From Treponemataceae bacterium (GTDB lineage: Bacteria; Spirochaetota; Spirochaetia; Treponematales; Rectinemataceae): a stretch of 64,000 nt of DNA. The position numbers were made by a program, and so were the translations under genes. This document shows positions 1-24,153 of the stretch, one piece after another. Location of the stretch: positions 1,632,001-1,696,000 of the forward strand of contig CAXXHO010000003.1 of NCBI GenBank assembly GCA_963667725.2, in the 5' to 3' direction. Position 1 is the first letter of the stretch; each line of letters begins with the position of its first letter. The notes under the pieces were generated by a model that was given only the letters and a program-made list of their open reading frames with translations, did not search any database and was not told the origin of the DNA.

Positions 1-354
1 CATGGTGGTGTCTATCTTCCCTATAGCGCCGGATCCCGAGTCTTCCGAGGCTTTCTCTGGCTCACCGATGATCCTCGCTTCGAAGCACAACACTGGGCCA
101 CGAATCTGTCAGGAAAATGTGGCGACCGCACACAAGTGCGCCTTACGATCGAGCTGCCTGAAGGAACAAAGATAAAGCCCTGGAACACTATCGCGAGAAC
201 GCTCTTTCTCTTGAGCCCCACCGATCTATGTGCCTTCAACCTCGCGGGGCATTCCGACGGTTCGCACTGGTACCTCTACCGCGGGGTGATCCCCGCTTCC
301 TGGATTATCGAGAAAACGGAAAGAACAAAGGAGTATGTCCATGGCAAGTCTTGA
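1..354 (+). CDS. Phage hypothetical protein, 5'-truncated by window edge
   Basis: Frame 1 is open from base 1 (HGGVYLP...FLWLTDDP...WYLYRGVIPASWI) to the stop at 354; overlaps the start of the next gene. Confidence 0.6.
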   Translation, partial: HGGVYLPYSAGSRVFRGFLWLTDDPRFEAQHWATNLSGKCGDRTQVRLTIELPEGTKIKPWNTIARTLFLLSPTDLCAFNLAGHSDGSHWYLYRGVIPASWIIEKTERTKEYVHGKS

Positions 355-943
355 AGTAATCGAGATCAAGCCCATCAACCTCAAGTACACGGAGATCAGG
401 ATCATTGGTGACACGCCTCTCATCGTTCACGCCTGGAGCGAGAAGATCAAGAAAGAAATGCTCGATCGGCAGATGAAGAAGGCGAAAAACGCGAAAGGTG
501 CTAAGAACCCAGAAGAGGAGTATCTTGCTTCATTCTATCGGCTTCCGGATGGTAAGTACGGCTTCCCCGCAATCGGCTTCAAGGCCGCGGCCGTATCCGC
601 CGGCGGACGGTTTGCCGAAGGTATGAAGATGACGGAGCTTCGGGGATCCTTCTTCGTCCTGGGAGAAGAGGGGAGCGACCTCGTCCCCATCGAGGGCGAG
701 CCTTCCATGAGGGAGGACACGGTCAAGGTCGGGATGGGGGTCGCGGACATACGCTACCGGCCCGAGTTCAGGGTCTGGGCGACGACGATACGGGTGAGAT
801 TCAACGCGGACAAGATCAGTCTCGAGCAGCTTGTGAACCTGTTCAATCTGGCGGGATTTGGGGTTGGGGTTGGCGAGTGGCGCCCTGAACGCGACGGTCA
901 ATTTGGCTGTTTCCATGTCGAGGTCAATGCCCCTCAAGGGTAA
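335..943 (+). CDS. RAMP/Cas7-like phage protein (candidate Vipr-like RNA-binding effector)
   Basis: ~200 aa; N-terminal IRIIGDTPLIVH strand, FPAIGFKAA helix and C-terminal Gly-rich loop GFGVGVGEWRPERDGQFGCF, matching the RAMP/Cas7 motif order; AAGGAG RBS just upstream (start 335 or 341). Confidence 0.7.
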   Translation: MSMASLEVIEIKPINLKYTEIRIIGDTPLIVHAWSEKIKKEMLDRQMKKAKNAKGAKNPEEEYLASFYRLPDGKYGFPAIGFKAAAVSAGGRFAEGMKMTELRGSFFVLGEEGSDLVPIEGEPSMREDTVKVGMGVADIRYRPEFRVWATTIRVRFNADKISLEQLVNLFNLAGFGVGVGEWRPERDGQFGCFHVEVNAPQG

Positions 944-1100
944 TGCCTCGTTGGAATATGACTCGGTTAGGTGCGGCTAGGCCGGGAAGGGCATGGCTTT
1001 GTAAGGCAAGGCATGGCAGGGACGGCAGGCAGGGGATCATGGAAGAGGCGATCGTACCGGAAGAGGAAAAGCGCAACGACGCTCTTTCTTCTGGCGCGAG
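944..1100 (+). ncRNA. Candidate guide-like ncRNA: periodic GGY-NN array plus downstream hairpin
   Basis: Intergenic (next real start is 1136); 12 in-phase 5-mers at 965-1024; imperfect stem-loop at ~1057-1095. Confidence 0.6.
965..1024 (+). repeat. 5-nt periodic array (GGY-NN)x12
   Basis: GGT-TA GGT-GC GGC-TA GGC-CG GGA-AG GGC-AT GGC-TT TGT-AA GGC-AA GGC-AT GGC-AG GGA-CG; 9 of 12 triplets are GGY. Confidence 0.9.
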
Positions 1101-1135: not shown

Positions 1136-1834
1136 ATGGTGTACAAGTGGAAGGAAGACTCGCCCCTGGTGAAGAAAGCGGATCCTCAGGCGATCGCGCG
1201 AGAGATCCTGACGATCGGCGGGGCGTCGGTACGGCCGAAGGATCTGGTTCAGGAAGCGTACTTGAAGAAAAACTCCGAACTCCACAAGTGCTTTGAGTGG
1301 GACAATACGGTCGCGGCCATCGAGTATCGAAAGTCCCAGGCGAAGGAGATCCTCTACTCGCTCGTGAAGGTGGAGAGCACGAAGCACGGCACCATGGAAG
1401 TGCTTGCTTTCGTTGAAAGCAGCCCCGTCTCGCACTCCCCAGAGACCGTACACTTTTCCGTTCGCGATGAGACAGAACGGCAGAAACATGAGACGAAGAA
1501 GCCCAAAGAAGCGCCCCCCTCGTTCCACCAAGGGCCGTTTGTGGCCATGGATGATACGGTGGGTACCCCTCCCCCTCTAAAGCGATCCTACGACGATCCT
1601 GAGCCCGCGACAGCGAAAGAACGAGAACAGGCGCCCGGCGAAGCGAGCGAGGAACGAGAAATTCAGGAAGGGAGTGACATGGAGGAGCTTATCAGGAGGC
1701 TTTCATCGATCCAGGATGAGCTCATGACGTATGGACGGTTTGAGGATCTCGGGGAGAAGCTTGGGGCATTGATCGACGAAATAAAAGAAAGAACGACTCG
1801 CGGGACTTCCAAGCTTGTTGCCAGTGTCGCGTAA
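1136..1834 (+). CDS. Phage hypothetical protein (LHKCFEWDN..AA..YR..QA motif), possible partner of the RAMP-like gene
   Basis: ATG at 1136 with AAGGAG at 1124-1129; ordered N-terminal domain followed by a low-complexity tail. Confidence 0.75.
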   Translation: MVYKWKEDSPLVKKADPQAIAREILTIGGASVRPKDLVQEAYLKKNSELHKCFEWDNTVAAIEYRKSQAKEILYSLVKVESTKHGTMEVLAFVESSPVSHSPETVHFSVRDETERQKHETKKPKEAPPSFHQGPFVAMDDTVGTPPPLKRSYDDPEPATAKEREQAPGEASEEREIQEGSDMEELIRRLSSIQDELMTYGRFEDLGEKLGALIDEIKERTTRGTSKLVASVA

Positions 1835-1846
1835 GGAGCATGCATC

Positions 1847-3136
1847 ATGGGAAGAATACGAAGTATAAAACCAGAATTCCCGCAATCGGAGAGCATTGGC
1901 AGGATGACCCGCGATGCCCGGCTTTGTTTTATTGAACTATGGACCATCGCCGACGATGAGGGAAGACTCCGGGGAAACACGCGGATGCTCGCGAGTTTAC
2001 TGTTTCCCTATGATGATGATGCCCCTGGCCTCATAGGCTCATGGCTTTCTGAAATCGAACGGGAAGGCTGTATTGTGCGCTATGAGGGTGCAGGACAGCA
2101 TTATGTTCAGGTATCGAACTGGGCTGCCCACCAGAAAATTGACAAGCCTTCACCGTCAAAGTTCCCGCCTCCCCCTGCAAAAGCCGAGACGCCTTCAGCG
2201 GCTGAGAGTACTCCACGCCAATTCGCCGAGGATTCGCGAACTATCGATACATCCTCGCGACCATTCGCCGAGGATTCGGCGAGTATTCCCCGAGGACTCG
2301 ACGAGGATTCGGCGAATGATCGAAGAACCTTCGCGACGGATATGGATCTAGGAAAGGATCAAGGAGAAGAAGGGAAAGGATCTTCCGCGCGCGAGGATTT
2401 ATCAAGCGAAGAGGGCGAGGAAAACAAAGAAATAATGACGGAGTGTCTTGTCCAAGAAGGTCATGATTCGTTTATGTTGGATCCGTCACTAGCAACGATG
2501 AAGCAGGATCATGACGATGTCATGACGAACCATGACGATATCATGAGAGAGAGCAAGCCTACTCAGCAAGAAGAACAGAAAGAAGAGAAGACGCGCATGT
2601 GTGAGGATCAGACTCCAATCCGAAAGACTTCATCCCGCGGGGCGTCGGCGAATGAGCCCGTCATCTTTTCGGAGCTTCCTCAATTCAAGATCGCCGGCTA
2701 TTGGTTCAGAAGGTACAATCAAGTGACGGGGATCACGCTCCTTCCTGATGAACGGGCAAACCACGCGGCAAAGGAGCTTTATGAAGCCTTAGGGAAGAAC
2801 AACACACTCGCGCAGCGCGCGGTGGATTACTACTTCGAGAACTGGCGAGAACTCTGGTTCGCTCAGAAGCGTATGCCGAAAGAGACGCCTCTTGAGAAAC
2901 GACAGTGGTCCTTCACGTTCATAAGCTTCACGAAGAACATCCAGGAGATTCTCTCGCTCATGCAAGCCTCTCCAACATCAACGAGTCCACGGACCACGCC
3001 TGAGCGTTGGAGTACAGGGATATCCTTCGATGAGGAGCACATACCCGAAGAAGAACGGGTAGAAAATGCGCGAAAACTATCGGATTTTGTACAGAATCTG
3101 GGCAAAACGAAGCGGGTTTCGTTGCTGGCAAATTAA
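1847..3136 (+). CDS. Phage replication initiator / replisome organiser
   Basis: N-terminal RIRSIKPEF...ADDEGR...HQKIDKPSPS motif typical of phage initiators; internal direct repeats. Confidence 0.75.
   Translation: MGRIRSIKPEFPQSESIGRMTRDARLCFIELWTIADDEGRLRGNTRMLASLLFPYDDDAPGLIGSWLSEIEREGCIVRYEGAGQHYVQVSNWAAHQKIDKPSPSKFPPPPAKAETPSAAESTPRQFAEDSRTIDTSSRPFAEDSASIPRGLDEDSANDRRTFATDMDLGKDQGEEGKGSSAREDLSSEEGEENKEIMTECLVQEGHDSFMLDPSLATMKQDHDDVMTNHDDIMRESKPTQQEEQKEEKTRMCEDQTPIRKTSSRGASANEPVIFSELPQFKIAGYWFRRYNQVTGITLLPDERANHAAKELYEALGKNNTLAQRAVDYYFENWRELWFAQKRMPKETPLEKRQWSFTFISFTKNIQEILSLMQASPTSTSPRTTPERWSTGISFDEEHIPEEERVENARKLSDFVQNLGKTKRVSLLAN
2220..2550 (+). repeat. Iteron-like direct repeats inside the replication gene (putative origin)
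   Basis: CGAGGA(T/C)TCG at 2227, 2269, 2291, 2302; CATGACGA-like at 2510, 2521, 2531, 2542. Confidence 0.55.
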
Positions 3137-3401: not shown

Positions 3402-4217
3402 TTATCCTTTATTCTCTTGTCCGCAATCTGTACCATCATTACTACTTTTCTCAGCTTCTTTTATTTTACTTTTTTGTTTTTCAATTTTCTTAATAGTTTT
3501 CAAATATTTATCATTAGTCTCAATTGCTTCAGGTGTATCTATAATTTCTCTTTTTAATACATCATTTACTATTATCGTATCTATTTCATCTACTTCAAAT
3601 TTAATTGTAGGATCAACTTTTCTAAATTCTCTTTTGATTGCTTCTATTACATATTCAGACCTAATAAATGCTCCTATATAATATTTATTAACAATCATCT
3701 TATGCTGTGTAAACTCATCTATTGCATTCTTCTTAATTCCTTCTTTACAAATAATATATAATTTATCTAAATCATTTCTATTTTTAATTTTTACATCTAA
3801 AATATTAAACTCACATACAAAATCAGTTTTTATTGGCTTTTCAAACTTAACTTTATATACTTTCCATACCACACCATTTGTAAGTATAATCCACTCATTT
3901 CCATTATTAGCACCGTAATCAAGTACTTGTTGATAATGCTTATCGGCAAGAGTCGTTCCAATTGCCTTTACTTCAATAAGGAACTTTACACTACCATCAA
4001 TTTTTACTGCTAAATCACAATATGTACTTTTTATGCAATATTCACGAGTAACTTCAGTATATTTATCATATCCAAAGAGAAGCGTTAATATATCTGTAAC
4101 TATTACAACAGTATCAGCTTCATTTATATCTCTATCTTTAGCTTGTTCTAGAATTTTTTGAATTTTCCCTAAATTTTCTTTGAATCTTTCAATAACCTTT
4201 ACATTGATTTGTGCCAT
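3402..4217 (-). CDS. Type I restriction enzyme HsdR N-terminal-like (PD-(D/E)XK) nuclease, cassette
   Basis: NEADT...LFGYD...E...CDLAV...LIEVKAIG...Q...Y...ILTNG pattern. Confidence 0.8.
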   Translation of the reverse strand: MAQINVKVIERFKENLGKIQKILEQAKDRDINEADTVVIVTDILTLLFGYDKYTEVTREYCIKSTYCDLAVKIDGSVKFLIEVKAIGTTLADKHYQQVLDYGANNGNEWIILTNGVVWKVYKVKFEKPIKTDFVCEFNILDVKIKNRNDLDKLYIICKEGIKKNAIDEFTQHKMIVNKYYIGAFIRSEYVIEAIKREFRKVDPTIKFEVDEIDTIIVNDVLKREIIDTPEAIETNDKYLKTIKKIEKQKSKIKEAEKSSNDGTDCGQENKG

Positions 4218-4343
4218 ACAAAACTCCTTTGATAAAATGCTTAAATTGCTAATCTTTAAAATTAGCTTTGTCTCGCGCCGAAAGCGTCATCCTAACATTG
4301 GCAATTAAAGTTTAGTATGTATCTTTGCGCGCCGAAGACGTCA

Positions 4344-4468
4344 ACCTAACATTGGCTTGACCCTTAACGCCAGATCCTGAGCGTAGCGAGGGATTGGCGT
4401 GGTTTATGCATTGTTGTTCTGCACAAACCATGACAAAGGGCGTTATAGGGTTGAAGCATTTGTTAGGC
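4344..4468 (-). repeat. attC site
   Basis: GCCTAAC...GTTAGGT imperfect palindrome, 125 bp. Confidence 0.9.
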
Positions 4469-6501: not shown

Positions 6502-6534
6502 AGTTCCTCCTATTTTAATAAGCGTGAAGCGTCC

Positions 6535-6661
6535 GCCTAACATTTTCGCTTAACCTTTAAATCCTGGCCTGAGCTACTGCGAAGGCTTGGCATGGTTTGT
6601 GCATTGTTGTTCCTGCACAAACCATGCCAAAGGATTTATAAGGTTGAAGCAGTTGTTAGTA
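6535..6661 (-). repeat. attC site
   Basis: TACTAAC...GTTAGGC imperfect palindrome. Confidence 0.9.
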
Positions 6662-6674
6662 GGTTACTCGAAAA

Positions 6675-8150
6675 TTAAGTATCAATTCTTAATTTATGAT
6701 TTTCTTCAGCTTTTTGTATATCTTTTGAGCTAATAAATTGACTAGATAGACTAAGCCACTTCAATACTTCAAAGTATGCATTATAATATTTTTTACTATC
6801 AAATTTAAAATAAACAAAATTATTTATATTAGAGGGTATTATAACTTTATCTTCAACAAGTACAAGAATTTTTTTTGAATTTTCTAATCCATAGTGTCTT
6901 AAGAAAAATCCTATTTCGTGATACACATTTGGACGCGAATAATTATTTTTTTTCTCAGTTATATCATTTTTAAGAATTGCAATAGTAAGTGTAGATTCAA
7001 GCATTGTTGAATATATTTTTTTTGATAATTCTTCCCCAAATCCAACTTGAACAATATTTGTTTTTGCTCCCTTATCAAAGAAATCTTCTTTAAGCCACTT
7101 ACTTAATTGAAACGCATATTCATTAGGTATTGTCTTTCCTTTCTTCTCATCATATTCCCAACTACATGTAATAAATATTTTTTCTTCTGTTGGTATAGAT
7201 ATTACTTCTCTTACATTGTTCTTTAAAACATATACAAGACTTGCTTTCCATTTATTTAAAGCAATTTCATCTAAAGAATTTTTTTCATTATCGATACTTT
7301 TTGAATTAAAAAATGTTGCTTTACAATTATAATTAATGTCTTTAGGATCCTTTATTCTTTTCAAACCGTCTTTCTTATTACTTTTATAGTATGTAGCATC
7401 ATCTGATATCATAGTACTATCTAATGTCCATAAATATCTCCAATGCTCTGCTAGAGAATTAAAAAGTTCAACGTCATCTGTTTCATTTGCACAAAGCATT
7501 GGATAATTTAGTAATAATTTATCAGAATTTATATTTTTTTTTGTTAGTATATATGCATCAGAATAAATATTATTATTAATTTTTAATATAGATACATTTA
7601 AGCTAGAAGTTGTAAATCTTACCATTACTTTATTTTCTTCATTATCAAAAGAAAGTAATTCTTCATTTATATAACTATGAATTGTTTTCAGAGAATTATT
7701 AAGATTTCTTACTGTCATTGAACCCCAAAATGTTCTTTCATCTATTTCATCAACTAAATCAAAACTTCTATAATATAATGGTTCATCAATAGTAGTTCTC
7801 TTTCTGCTATTTTCAGCTTGAAGAATAGAATACGTATAATCTGAAAATGGATAAACAAATAAAAGCCTAAATCTTACAGCAATCCCTTGATCGTTAATTG
7901 TTTTTATATTTTTTATTGTTTCTTGCAGTTTTTTAGCAATCGATGGATCGGAAAACATTCCCCCTAAATCAAAAAGAATGCTACCAGATAAACCTGCATA
8001 ATCTATTGTAGCTATTTTCTTATACTTACTTTCTTCTAGATCTAGTGGGTTTTTTTTGTCGTAAGCAGATTTAATTAATGAGTCAAGACATAAATCATTA
8101 ATTATTTTTTCATTTAACTCTTTTGAATATCTACTTTCATAATATTTCAT
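6675..8150 (-). CDS. Protein with C-terminal TIR-like nucleotide-binding domain, cassette
   Basis: C-terminal KIFITCSW...SRPNVYHEIGFF...ILVLVE...IPSNI motif; N-terminal ~300 aa unassigned. Confidence 0.7.
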   Translation of the reverse strand: MKYYESRYSKELNEKIINDLCLDSLIKSAYDKKNPLDLEESKYKKIATIDYAGLSGSILFDLGGMFSDPSIAKKLQETIKNIKTINDQGIAVRFRLLFVYPFSDYTYSILQAENSRKRTTIDEPLYYRSFDLVDEIDERTFWGSMTVRNLNNSLKTIHSYINEELLSFDNEENKVMVRFTTSSLNVSILKINNNIYSDAYILTKKNINSDKLLLNYPMLCANETDDVELFNSLAEHWRYLWTLDSTMISDDATYYKSNKKDGLKRIKDPKDINYNCKATFFNSKSIDNEKNSLDEIALNKWKASLVYVLKNNVREVISIPTEEKIFITCSWEYDEKKGKTIPNEYAFQLSKWLKEDFFDKGAKTNIVQVGFGEELSKKIYSTMLESTLTIAILKNDITEKKNNYSRPNVYHEIGFFLRHYGLENSKKILVLVEDKVIIPSNINNFVYFKFDSKKYYNAYFEVLKWLSLSSQFISSKDIQKAEENHKLRIDT

Positions 8151-22596: not shown

Positions 22597-22980
22597 TCAG
22601 AGATTCTCTGCGTTATAAATTGTATATTTTTTCCTCCCATTTGACTTGACGGGTTTTGATTGGCTTTCATAGCGCTCCACCTGATCCTTCCATGTCCTGA
22701 TCACCGCTTCTGGTGTATCCGGCCTTAACCAGGCTTGAAACGCTTCTCCTGCATCTTTCATGCTTTCCATAAACTGATCCTGCAGTTCATAGAAGATCCG
22801 ATGCATCTCCGCGGTACTAGCTTCCGTCTTTCGATAGATATTGATCTTCGATTCCGCTTTCTCAAGGGCATCCAATATCAGCTTGGCATCTTTAAGGTTT
22901 ATGACGTGATACCCATTCCCTGACTGTTCCTTGATTTCCTGTCTCACTGCTTCAAGCTTTGCCTTCTCTTCGTCATTCAT
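22597..22980 (-). CDS. Phage hypothetical protein
   Basis: 127 aa; overlaps the methyltransferase stop; AAGGAG RBS. Confidence 0.65.
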   Translation of the reverse strand: MNDEEKAKLEAVRQEIKEQSGNGYHVINLKDAKLILDALEKAESKINIYRKTEASTAEMHRIFYELQDQFMESMKDAGEAFQAWLRPDTPEAVIRTWKDQVERYESQSKPVKSNGRKKYTIYNAENL

Positions 22981-23737
22981 CGGTAGTCTCCTTTTCTCTA
23001 TACTTCTTCAGCCGATCAAGTGCGAGCTCATGATACGACGCTTCCTTTTCAAAGCCGATAAAATGCCTTTCTTCAGCCATGGCCGCAATCGCTGTTGTCC
23101 CCGACCCCATGAAAGGGTCAAAGACGACTTCCCCTGGATTAGAGTATGTCCGGACGAGGTACCGGAAGAGTGCAACGGGTTTCTGGGTAGGATGTCTCCC
23201 CGCTCCCCCACCCTCCTTGTTGAAAGGAAGGATGCTCGTCGGATACTTCCCTTCATGCTCGTAGGCGATCTTCCATGTCTTTTTGTAGACTCCCCTTGTC
23301 GAATGCTCCTGCCCTTTGAGCTGCCTGGCCACATGAGAGGCATCCTTCTTCATCTGGGGGTTATATACCGGAAGTCTTCTATAGAACACGAGAATGAGTT
23401 CGTGCTGTCGCATCGGCATTTTATGGGAGTTTAGGAATCCGACGGGGTTTGATTTCACCCAGACCAGGTCATAGCGGAACCATTTTCTATTGGAGTTGAT
23501 CAGATCCGTGGCGAAAGGCTGTGTTGCGGTGATCACCGCGGCGCCGTTAGGTTTCAGAATCCGGAGGAACTCGGTCCACATGAATCCTAAGTCTGGCCGT
23601 TTGTCCCAGGCGCAGTCCGTGACCCCATAAGGGGGATCCGTGAGAACGAGGTCGATTGAACCATCGGGGATCCGTTTGATCCCAACCTCATAGGGAGCTA
23701 GTAAGATTTTGTCGAGCAAAGTTGAGGAAGTCGGCAT
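22973..23737 (-). CDS. Orphan N6A/N4C DNA methyltransferase (beta class)
   Basis: TDPPYG precedes HPTQKP and FDPFMGSGTT. Confidence 0.92.
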   Translation of the reverse strand: MPTSSTLLDKILLAPYEVGIKRIPDGSIDLVLTDPPYGVTDCAWDKRPDLGFMWTEFLRILKPNGAAVITATQPFATDLINSNRKWFRYDLVWVKSNPVGFLNSHKMPMRQHELILVFYRRLPVYNPQMKKDASHVARQLKGQEHSTRGVYKKTWKIAYEHEGKYPTSILPFNKEGGGAGRHPTQKPVALFRYLVRTYSNPGEVVFDPFMGSGTTAIAAMAEERHFIGFEKEASYHELALDRLKKYREKETTDE

Positions 23738-23956
23738 TGAGGCAGTGTAATATTCTACTACACATTTGTAAAGTAATATTGATTCATCGATAGCTTCATA
23801 AGTGCACATTAAAGGTTAGCTCTGGAGCTTACGATTCCTAGAATGATCTTTAGCAGCCCCATAGTGGTGTACTCTCAGGCGAGCATGACCGGTTAAAATG
23901 AAGTACTTGGGATAGGCTATATGCAACCTGGCTTTTGACCAGGAGGCTCTAGGGTG

Positions 23957-24109: not shown

Positions 24110-24152
24110 GTTCGGGACCAAGATGTCGGAGGTTCAAATCCTCTCAGCCCGA
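24110..24152 (+). other. att site: 3' half of tRNA-Pro(CGG)
   Basis: TTCGGGA anticodon loop, GGAGGTTCAAATCCTCT T-arm and CAGCCCGA acceptor strand; 5' half absent. Confidence 0.85.
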
Positions 24153-24153
24153 T

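Follow-up and report, generated by a model that had tools for sequence, protein, structure and literature searches.

A five-nucleotide periodic tract in a Treponemataceae prophage as a probable VIPR guide RNA gene, with a sibling prophage guide matching a gene of the same element

Overview

A tract of twelve five-nucleotide units, located between two genes of a bacterial prophage, is very probably (at a probability of about 0.93) a guide RNA (vrRNA) gene. It would belong to a VIPR system that lies in the early operon of element A, a defective prophage of 40 kb situated at a tRNA-Pro gene. The window (i.e. the whole stretch of DNA analysed) comprises 64,000 nucleotides of contig CAXXHO010000003.1 (here C3) of a Treponemataceae bacterium. 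VIPR systems, described in 2026 as phage-borne, CRISPR-related means of gene silencing and located mostly in proviruses or viruses, consist of vipr, vap and vrRNAs. A vrRNA has 9–16 YNNGG repeats; their NN pairs are matched to DNA with a skip of one base, which mostly falls on the wobble position, and transcription is repressed (bioRxiv 10.64898/2026.04.26.720920). The interleaved code, as well as the inference and the test put forward in an initial annotation of this DNA, is thus already published with VIPR. What is new here is that the chromosome also holds a sibling prophage whose Vipr is 88% identical and whose guide (guide B) matches a gene of element A. No VIPR match between two prophages of one chromosome was found in the literature searched, and the published data files may list this clade. 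Coordinates of the features are collected in Table 1.

Table 1. Features of the VIPR locus of element A and of its sibling (window positions unless a contig is named)
Feature	Position	Strand	Evidence
vipr, 202 aa, RAMP-fold guide-binding protein by homology	335..943	+	phmmer, profile, model, phrog_4652
vrRNA repeat tract (guide A), 12 GGY/NN-type units	965..1024	+	Periodicity, L146 comparison, family arrays
Phase slip GGCA/GGCAG, 1-nt overlap	1024..1032	+	Array-end, staggered-array motif of the family
Hairpin, candidate vrRNA tail or processing signal	1052..1099	+	Folds in window and L146 variants
vap accessory gene (putative), 232 aa, family start ATG 1136	1136..1834	+	Homologs at vipr loci, phrog_15946
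Phage replication initiation protein	1847..3136	+	phrog_2149, E = 1.5e-33
Right attachment repeat, 44 bp	24110..24153	+	Identical to 3' part of tRNA-Pro, C3:1616332-1616375, outside the window
Second VIPR locus, sibling prophage	G000:C3:507850-508548	-	L043, L135

Unit structure of the tract and its family

The tract starts 21 bases past the vipr stop codon and reads GGTTA, GGTGC, GGCTA, GGCCG, GGAAG, GGCAT, GGCTT, TGTAA, GGCAA, GGCAT, GGCAG and GGACG on the forward strand. Position 1 is G in 11 of the 12 units and position 2 in all 12, and position 3 is a pyrimidine in 10; three units (i.e. two GGA and one TGT) depart from GGY. These units, their counts and the string of NN pairs reproduce exactly those of the initial annotation. 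The phase slip described there (GGCA GGCAG) is also present, with G1024 serving both as the last base of GGACG and as the first of GGCA, and with GGCAG following at 1028–1032. Having GG in phase in 11/12 units, this was the top 5-periodic GG array of the window, the next best on both strands reaching 7/12. Against the observed GG phase score of 11, Markov simulations of the first 3.2 kb (n = 200) gave a maximum of 8, as did 20,000 shuffles of the tract itself. The tract was absent from the output of Tandem Repeats Finder, as expected if conservation covers just part of each unit. The same tract, slip included, was carried by three metagenome contigs sharing one variant (i.e. L146, L181 and L182), which rules out an assembly error.

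Arrays were found at 86 of 105 vipr-related loci, a set fetched by protein whose members are redundant and related, and hence non-independent; 365 arrays shared the strand of vipr and 6 had the opposite one. Among 2,213 internal units from 282 distinct arrays, the entropies at unit positions 1 to 5 were 0.41, 0.62, 1.28, 1.95 and 1.96 bits, where the low values at positions 1–3 are partly built in because the array detector required GG and GGY, and positions 4–5 are unaffected. Internal units other than GGC or GGT were frequent (447/2,213). The final unit was GGCAG in 184 of the 282 distinct arrays, and in 142 GC came next. Because of this preponderance, the slip GGCA/GGCAG is read as the array-end motif of the family, and the final unit or two of guide A (unit 11 being GGCAG) are probably end scaffold. 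Staggered arrays with one-base overlaps, as well as single-guide systems, have been reported for VIPR (bioRxiv 10.64898/2026.04.26.720920), the legend of Figure S18 of that preprint being where the staggered arrays are shown.

The interpretation of the tract as a scaffold interleaved with a spacer equals the published VIPR code, and a gene for a Vipr-type protein adjoins the tract. The initial annotation had also proposed a comparison of the NN pairs between related prophages. Guide A differs completely from the sibling guide and from other arrays, whereas 0 of 24 letters were changed in the near-identical L146, where the identity of the NN pairs is read as retention of one guide. Among the family arrays, the NN string of guide A was matched at six or more units in L146 alone.

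A Vipr-type RAMP protein encoded upstream of the tract

The 202-aa product of vipr matched the solved structure entitled 'SUSP1 Vipr protein' (PDB 36pp) in phmmer (E = 7.3e-8) and profile (E = 1.4e-8) searches, 36pp being its sole phmmer match among solved structures at E values up to 10; the likeness is limited to residues 129–197. The protein falls within phrog_4652 (E = 2e-36), has 6,574 database relatives and gave no match in a Pfam scan. A predicted model (pLDDT 83) resembled Csm3/Cas7-type RAMPs (Foldseek E = 4e-6; VIA Z = 10.1, rmsd 3.9, 149 aligned). The Foldseek and VIA matches of the model did not include 36pp, the structure libraries ending on 2026-04-08, before the VIPR preprints. 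In the structural preprint, H17, R138, D177, W178 and R179 are given as the SUSP1 Vipr residues that hold the guide GGY bases (bioRxiv 10.64898/2026.04.26.720927). These align with H32, R142, E181, W182 and R183 of the present protein, H32 lying in a weakly scored first segment; across 85 aligned homologs, conservation of E181 is 90% or higher and the other four residues never vary. Vipr proteins are RAMP homologs marked by an RRM core, a thumb and a G-loop; the C-terminus of the present protein has a GFGVGVGEWRP loop.

A single-protein search for Vipr in 60 related genomes found none. Full-length homologs with 38–43% identity, annotated as hypothetical, are encoded by cultured Mycobacterium smegmatis and Gordonia phages (records H1–H32), and these phages are possible laboratory models for this Vipr clade.

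Downstream genes and the prophage element

No sigma-70-like promoter was found in 700–1300. The hairpin downstream of the slip had a z-score of -2.55 (2/200 shuffles) on a 61-nt piece that was picked after the fold had been seen, and non-significant values of -0.45 to -0.74 in longer pieces. The L146 variant pairs better (z = -6.59). The hairpin comparison covers two sequences only, the sequence 3' of the sibling array differs from this region, and no Rfam family matched the region. A vap homolog was present at 68 of the 105 vipr-related loci, most of them beginning M[VI]Y, as at 1136, and the vap product falls within phrog_15946 (E = 5e-9). Structure searches with Vap gave no clear fold match, the wide search being swamped by C-terminal helices. 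In Vap of element A and in three database proteins (P0133–P0135), a long, acidic and proline-rich insert separates the N-terminal domain from the C-terminal helices; the rest of the family is about 155 aa long. Tandem repeats of 11 bp at 2263–2315 and 2508–2546, in the linker of the replication initiator gene, are possibly origin iterons.

Element A extends over approximately 40 kb from tRNA-Pro (C3:1616332) to the 44-bp att repeat, and the window starts inside it. At the left end tRNA-Pro(CGG) adjoins the integrase, and the left arm carries integrase, IS1595, CI-like repressor, excisionase-like, RusA-like and ParB genes; AT-rich cargo genes with ~140-bp repeats between them lie past the replication gene. 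No virion genes were seen among the ORFs of element A of at least 110 aa, the cargo ORFs being read by eye, and, as judged from its sequence, element A is a defective prophage. No Pfam match to a cas family was obtained in the 20 neighbouring ORFs scanned, and no repeat-spacer array was present among the tandem repeats of the window. Seven IMG/VR contigs have, to varying extents, the gene order of the left arm; the array and vipr were not seen in these seven, and one runs on into terminase-like and portal-like genes, as read from the sequence.

The ~140-bp repeats are imperfect inverted repeats, located at 4330–4466, 6522–6658 and further positions to ~21,700 between single AT-rich genes, and number roughly 250 merged copies genome-wide, of which 169 are on contig C5. 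We take these repeats to resemble integron attC sites. Cassettes with them occupy the late-gene place in both prophage-like elements. Two cargo genes on the minus strand are possible defence genes by eye, resembling a restriction-enzyme N-terminal domain protein (3402–4217) and a nuclease-plus-TIR-like protein (6675–8150). A DNA methyltransferase-like gene and a small gene (22597–23809, minus strand) adjoin the right att site.

Guide B of the sibling prophage and an early gene of element A

The second Vipr is encoded at C3:507958–508548. Its element (element B) is collinear with element A, lies at tRNA-Glu/Gln and has its own array with unrelated NN pairs; in this array one base is inserted behind unit 11 and the GGCAG end is missing, and two short hairpins follow downstream. 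A tRNA-Ser(CGA) was reported by ARAGORN at L136:931–1014 inside the sibling element.

The best 11-unit skip-1 match of guide B in the 4.2 Mb genome was at C3:1631539 (18/22), approximately 460 bases left of the window and approximately 800 upstream of the element A vipr, on the same strand. Since genome-wide shuffles also gave 17–18, it is the location, the register and the homologs that carry the argument. Within element A, 2 of 1000 shuffles attained 18/22 and 3 of 1000 unit shuffles attained the 19/24 of the 12-unit version, four guide–element pairings having been examined. The matched site falls within a gene of 82 aa, in a register that puts each skipped base at codon position 3. By atlas features this gene is DUF736-like, which is a lead. 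Read as codons, guide B gives K-F-P-D-F-Y-I-E-A-W-V-I, as compared to R-Y-P-D-F-Y-V-E-A-W-V-A in element A and K-F-P-D-F-Y-I-E-A-W-V-A in a homolog (P0122) known by protein search alone; from the genetic code, a site of the P0122 type would fit guide B at 22/24.

At the DNA level guide B scored 21/24 in L212 and 20/24 in both L213 and L214, exceeding 1000/1000 shuffles each in L212 and L213, although L212–L218 were fetched with a peptide pattern overlapping the guide B site and are not a blind sample. Relative to the level of at least 80% that marks VIPR targets, the matches in L212, L213 and L214 lie above the line and that in element A (18/22 or 19/24) is borderline. A skip of one base was the best or tied-best rule in 8/8 sequences tested; skips of 0, 2 and 3 gave 14–16 in most of these eight, with skip 0 giving 18/24 in L213 and L214. 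An exact scan of IMG/VR with units 3–11, picked after L212 had been seen, returned one match, the L212 gene, and units 2–10 returned none. The ortholog in element B itself (K-F-P-L-Y-F-I-E-A-W-F-P) scored 15/22, not far below the 18 of element A. Among 11 aligned sequences, element A alone has valine at the isoleucine position of guide B. These comparisons make it likely that guide B was derived from the 82-aa gene family; that it still silences element A is doubtful.

Searches for a target of guide A

The gapped-match search proposed in the initial annotation for its NN string yielded nothing above chance. In its own genome, with the tract itself excepted, the best matches of guide A on both strands with skips of 0, 1, 2 and 3 were 18, 18, 19 and 17 of 24, and skip-1 shuffles (n = 20) gave 17–19 of 24, equalling the real 18. 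The 11-unit version reached 18/22 there (shuffles 16–18), and 16/22 in the sibling element, a score attained by 293/1000 shuffles. Exact patterns of guide A in IMG/VR gave three matches for units 1–9, none for units 2–10 and 86 for units 4–11, the control being one shuffled 9-unit pattern with 0 matches. All 89 matches were rescored (83 + 6), the six reaching at most 18/22. In the best (L047, 21/22) the skipped bases are the second of each codon in the open frame, and its near copies L046 and L048 have a stop in both wobble frames; these three, being out of wobble register, are probably due to chance, judged with a single control scan.

In 401 genomes of the order, guide A had 9 matches at up to three mismatches versus 6 for a reversed control, and none in the 68 family genomes. 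A 20/22 match in L141, located on the antisense strand where a host gene begins, was rejected. No exact 22-letter match occurred in JGI metagenomes, none at up to three mismatches in five related phage records, and the best in L212–L218 and L222–L229 was 16/22. Two 15/22 matches are leads: one in the replication-gene linker of L213/L214, with seven whole units in a run and outside the wobble register, and one directly upstream of vap in L146. Host repeats were rejected as a decoy, the mean best score over ~250 copies being 12.19 versus 12.25 ± 0.25 for shuffles. Since the sibling guide B matches a gene of such a phage, the target of guide A is probably a related temperate phage absent from the collections searched.

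Conservation, decay in relatives and alternative explanations

The tract could share the proposed origin and yet be a decaying copy that persists in a dead prophage, its guide having ceased to be produced or used. Several observations agree with this: the lack of virion genes found in element A, the three of 12 units that are non-GGY, the guide A target not being found, and losses in relatives. The host flank of L146 is 98.9% identical, and its element, at the same tRNA, lacks all sequence from a point just within the integrase gene up to window position 186 and again 243–375. At L146:9920–10606, two nested deletions join the region directly after tRNA-Pro to window 186–243 and then to 375. 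The left part lost in L146 and its relatives is ~16 kb. These deletions take the targeted gene and the first codons of vipr; an open frame into vipr remains, as do the guide, vap and the replication initiator. Runs X5, X6 and X8, from three studies, have the same deletion joint, and X5 and X8 have an additional in-frame loss of ~135 bases inside vipr. In the read comparison of these runs, the tract had no gaps, and none of the 40 differences listed, out of 112, fell inside it. The losses fit a decay that spares the guide, like that of solo vrRNAs.

Against a mere relic stands vipr itself, which is intact here and, in comparison with L146, bears the marks of purifying selection (26 silent and 3 amino-acid changes; 27/543 bases differ). 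Window 951–1066 differs from L146 by one change (C to T at 992, a Y position), whereas the 68 bases after 1066 have ten changes and vap has 41/699 bases changed. With one independent variant behind the test, this conservation suggests retention in the direction expected for a guide. Non-GGY trimers are, moreover, frequent within family arrays. Decay to an unused copy is on these grounds an unlikely reading, and a functional VIPR guide gene is preferred.

Translation of the tract as an N-terminal extension of vap, with the period being incidental, is far less probable. The frame 971–1834 crosses the tract and is open both in the window and in L146, and one database protein (P0132) has a 291-aa form of Vap. 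However, 971–1135 has 2 silent and 7 amino-acid changes relative to L146 (as compared to 26 and 3 for vipr), the family proteins begin at the residue matching ATG 1136, and vap of the sibling element begins there with unrelated sequence upstream. The tract region of the frame shows, in its pattern of substitutions, no protein-coding selection, and the earlier statement that a 5-nt period is not derivable from codons holds despite the open frame crossing the tract. A degenerate microsatellite or chance G-rich tract without stored information, for which the G-rich region and the missing guide A target could speak, can be dismissed in view of a GG phasing that exceeds all simulations, the motif on the vipr strand at 86/105 related loci with near-maximal NN entropy, and the decoding of sibling guide B to a phage gene.

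Proposed mechanism and significance

The vrRNA would be co-transcribed with vipr. By homology with SUSP1, each unit would be bound by one Vipr subunit with GGY buried, forming a filament on the RNA, and the NN pairs would read double-stranded DNA, two bases with one skipped, such that the Vipr–guide complex would block transcription of a gene of a competing phage. The end of the guide may be set by GGCA/GGCAG or lie after the hairpin, which may cap the guide. In two of the preprints, substitution of GGY to GGA abolishes silencing and the binding pocket shuts out purines (bioRxiv 10.64898/2026.04.26.720920; 10.64898/2026.04.26.720927). As three of the 12 units break GGY, silencing by guide A may be weakened.

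A tentative and rather improbable extension is that the guide of element B silences the early operon of element A, that A has partly escaped, and that other strains lost the targeted arm and kept the guide. Silencing by guide B would take down vipr, the guide, vap and the replication initiator of A, at a site that would separate the two element lineages; escape would have involved first- and second-position codon changes, which a wobble-skipping code could not tolerate. If true, this would be a natural record of VIPR attack, escape and domestication in a clade far from those studied.

Computationally, the locus extends the one-base-skip, wobble-register rule to a GGCAG-ended Vipr clade that is distant from the two bench-tested clades. 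The genome supplies a ready-made test pair of related VIPR loci, the guide of one matching the other element at ~80%, which bears on tolerated mismatches, tolerated non-GGY units, target escape and the sharing of guides between co-resident systems.

Comparison with known systems

Vipr shares its fold with the RAMPs of class 1 CRISPR systems (i.e. Csm3/Cas7, Cmr, Cas5 and Cas6) by two structure searches. Unlike those systems, the guide information is interleaved, with no contiguous spacer, and no cas gene or CRISPR array was seen among the neighbouring ORFs.

VIPR guides against resident prophages and against other VIPR systems have been reported, and no match of at least 80% on their own contig was found there for the P. 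fulva, type III and type V guides (bioRxiv 10.64898/2026.04.26.720920). Unlike the latter, the sibling guide scores 79–82% on its own chromosome. The Vipr structure is given in a second preprint (bioRxiv 10.64898/2026.04.26.720927), and conflict between phages and satellites, with guides aimed at the VIPR loci of relatives, in a third (bioRxiv 10.64898/2026.10.15.759431).

Several features set this locus apart from SUSP1 VIPR. It belongs to a distant clade, with Vipr similarity over residues 129–197 only; a single guide is placed in the vipr–vap interval, in contrast to four surrounding the genes; the array ends in the GGCA/GGCAG overlap, as in staggered arrays; vap has a long insert; and the tail is a plain predicted hairpin. 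Relative to the SUSP1-family cases, as described in the third preprint, both rivals are here in one chromosome and both have vipr. What guide B matches is a small conserved early gene that precedes the vipr of its rival, in place of sites in vipr, vrRNA, recombinase or host-repeat sequences; guide A has no enrichment on the dispersed repeats of this genome.

The likenesses extend to the same SUSP1-family material, in which solo vrRNAs and VIPR-versus-VIPR guides of phages and satellites are, as here, aimed at related elements with a self match below that of the rival, and in which deletions likewise remove or damage vipr while the guide stays. As in the VIPR systems of coliphage SUSP1 and of a Pseudomonas fulva prophage, the locus is a two-gene proviral one encoding a RAMP protein of ~200 aa with conserved guide-binding residues. 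Its 12 units are in line with the published 9–16 YNNGG-type repeats, a structured 3' region is predicted, and the one-base skip with wobble register is fitted here by sibling guide B only.
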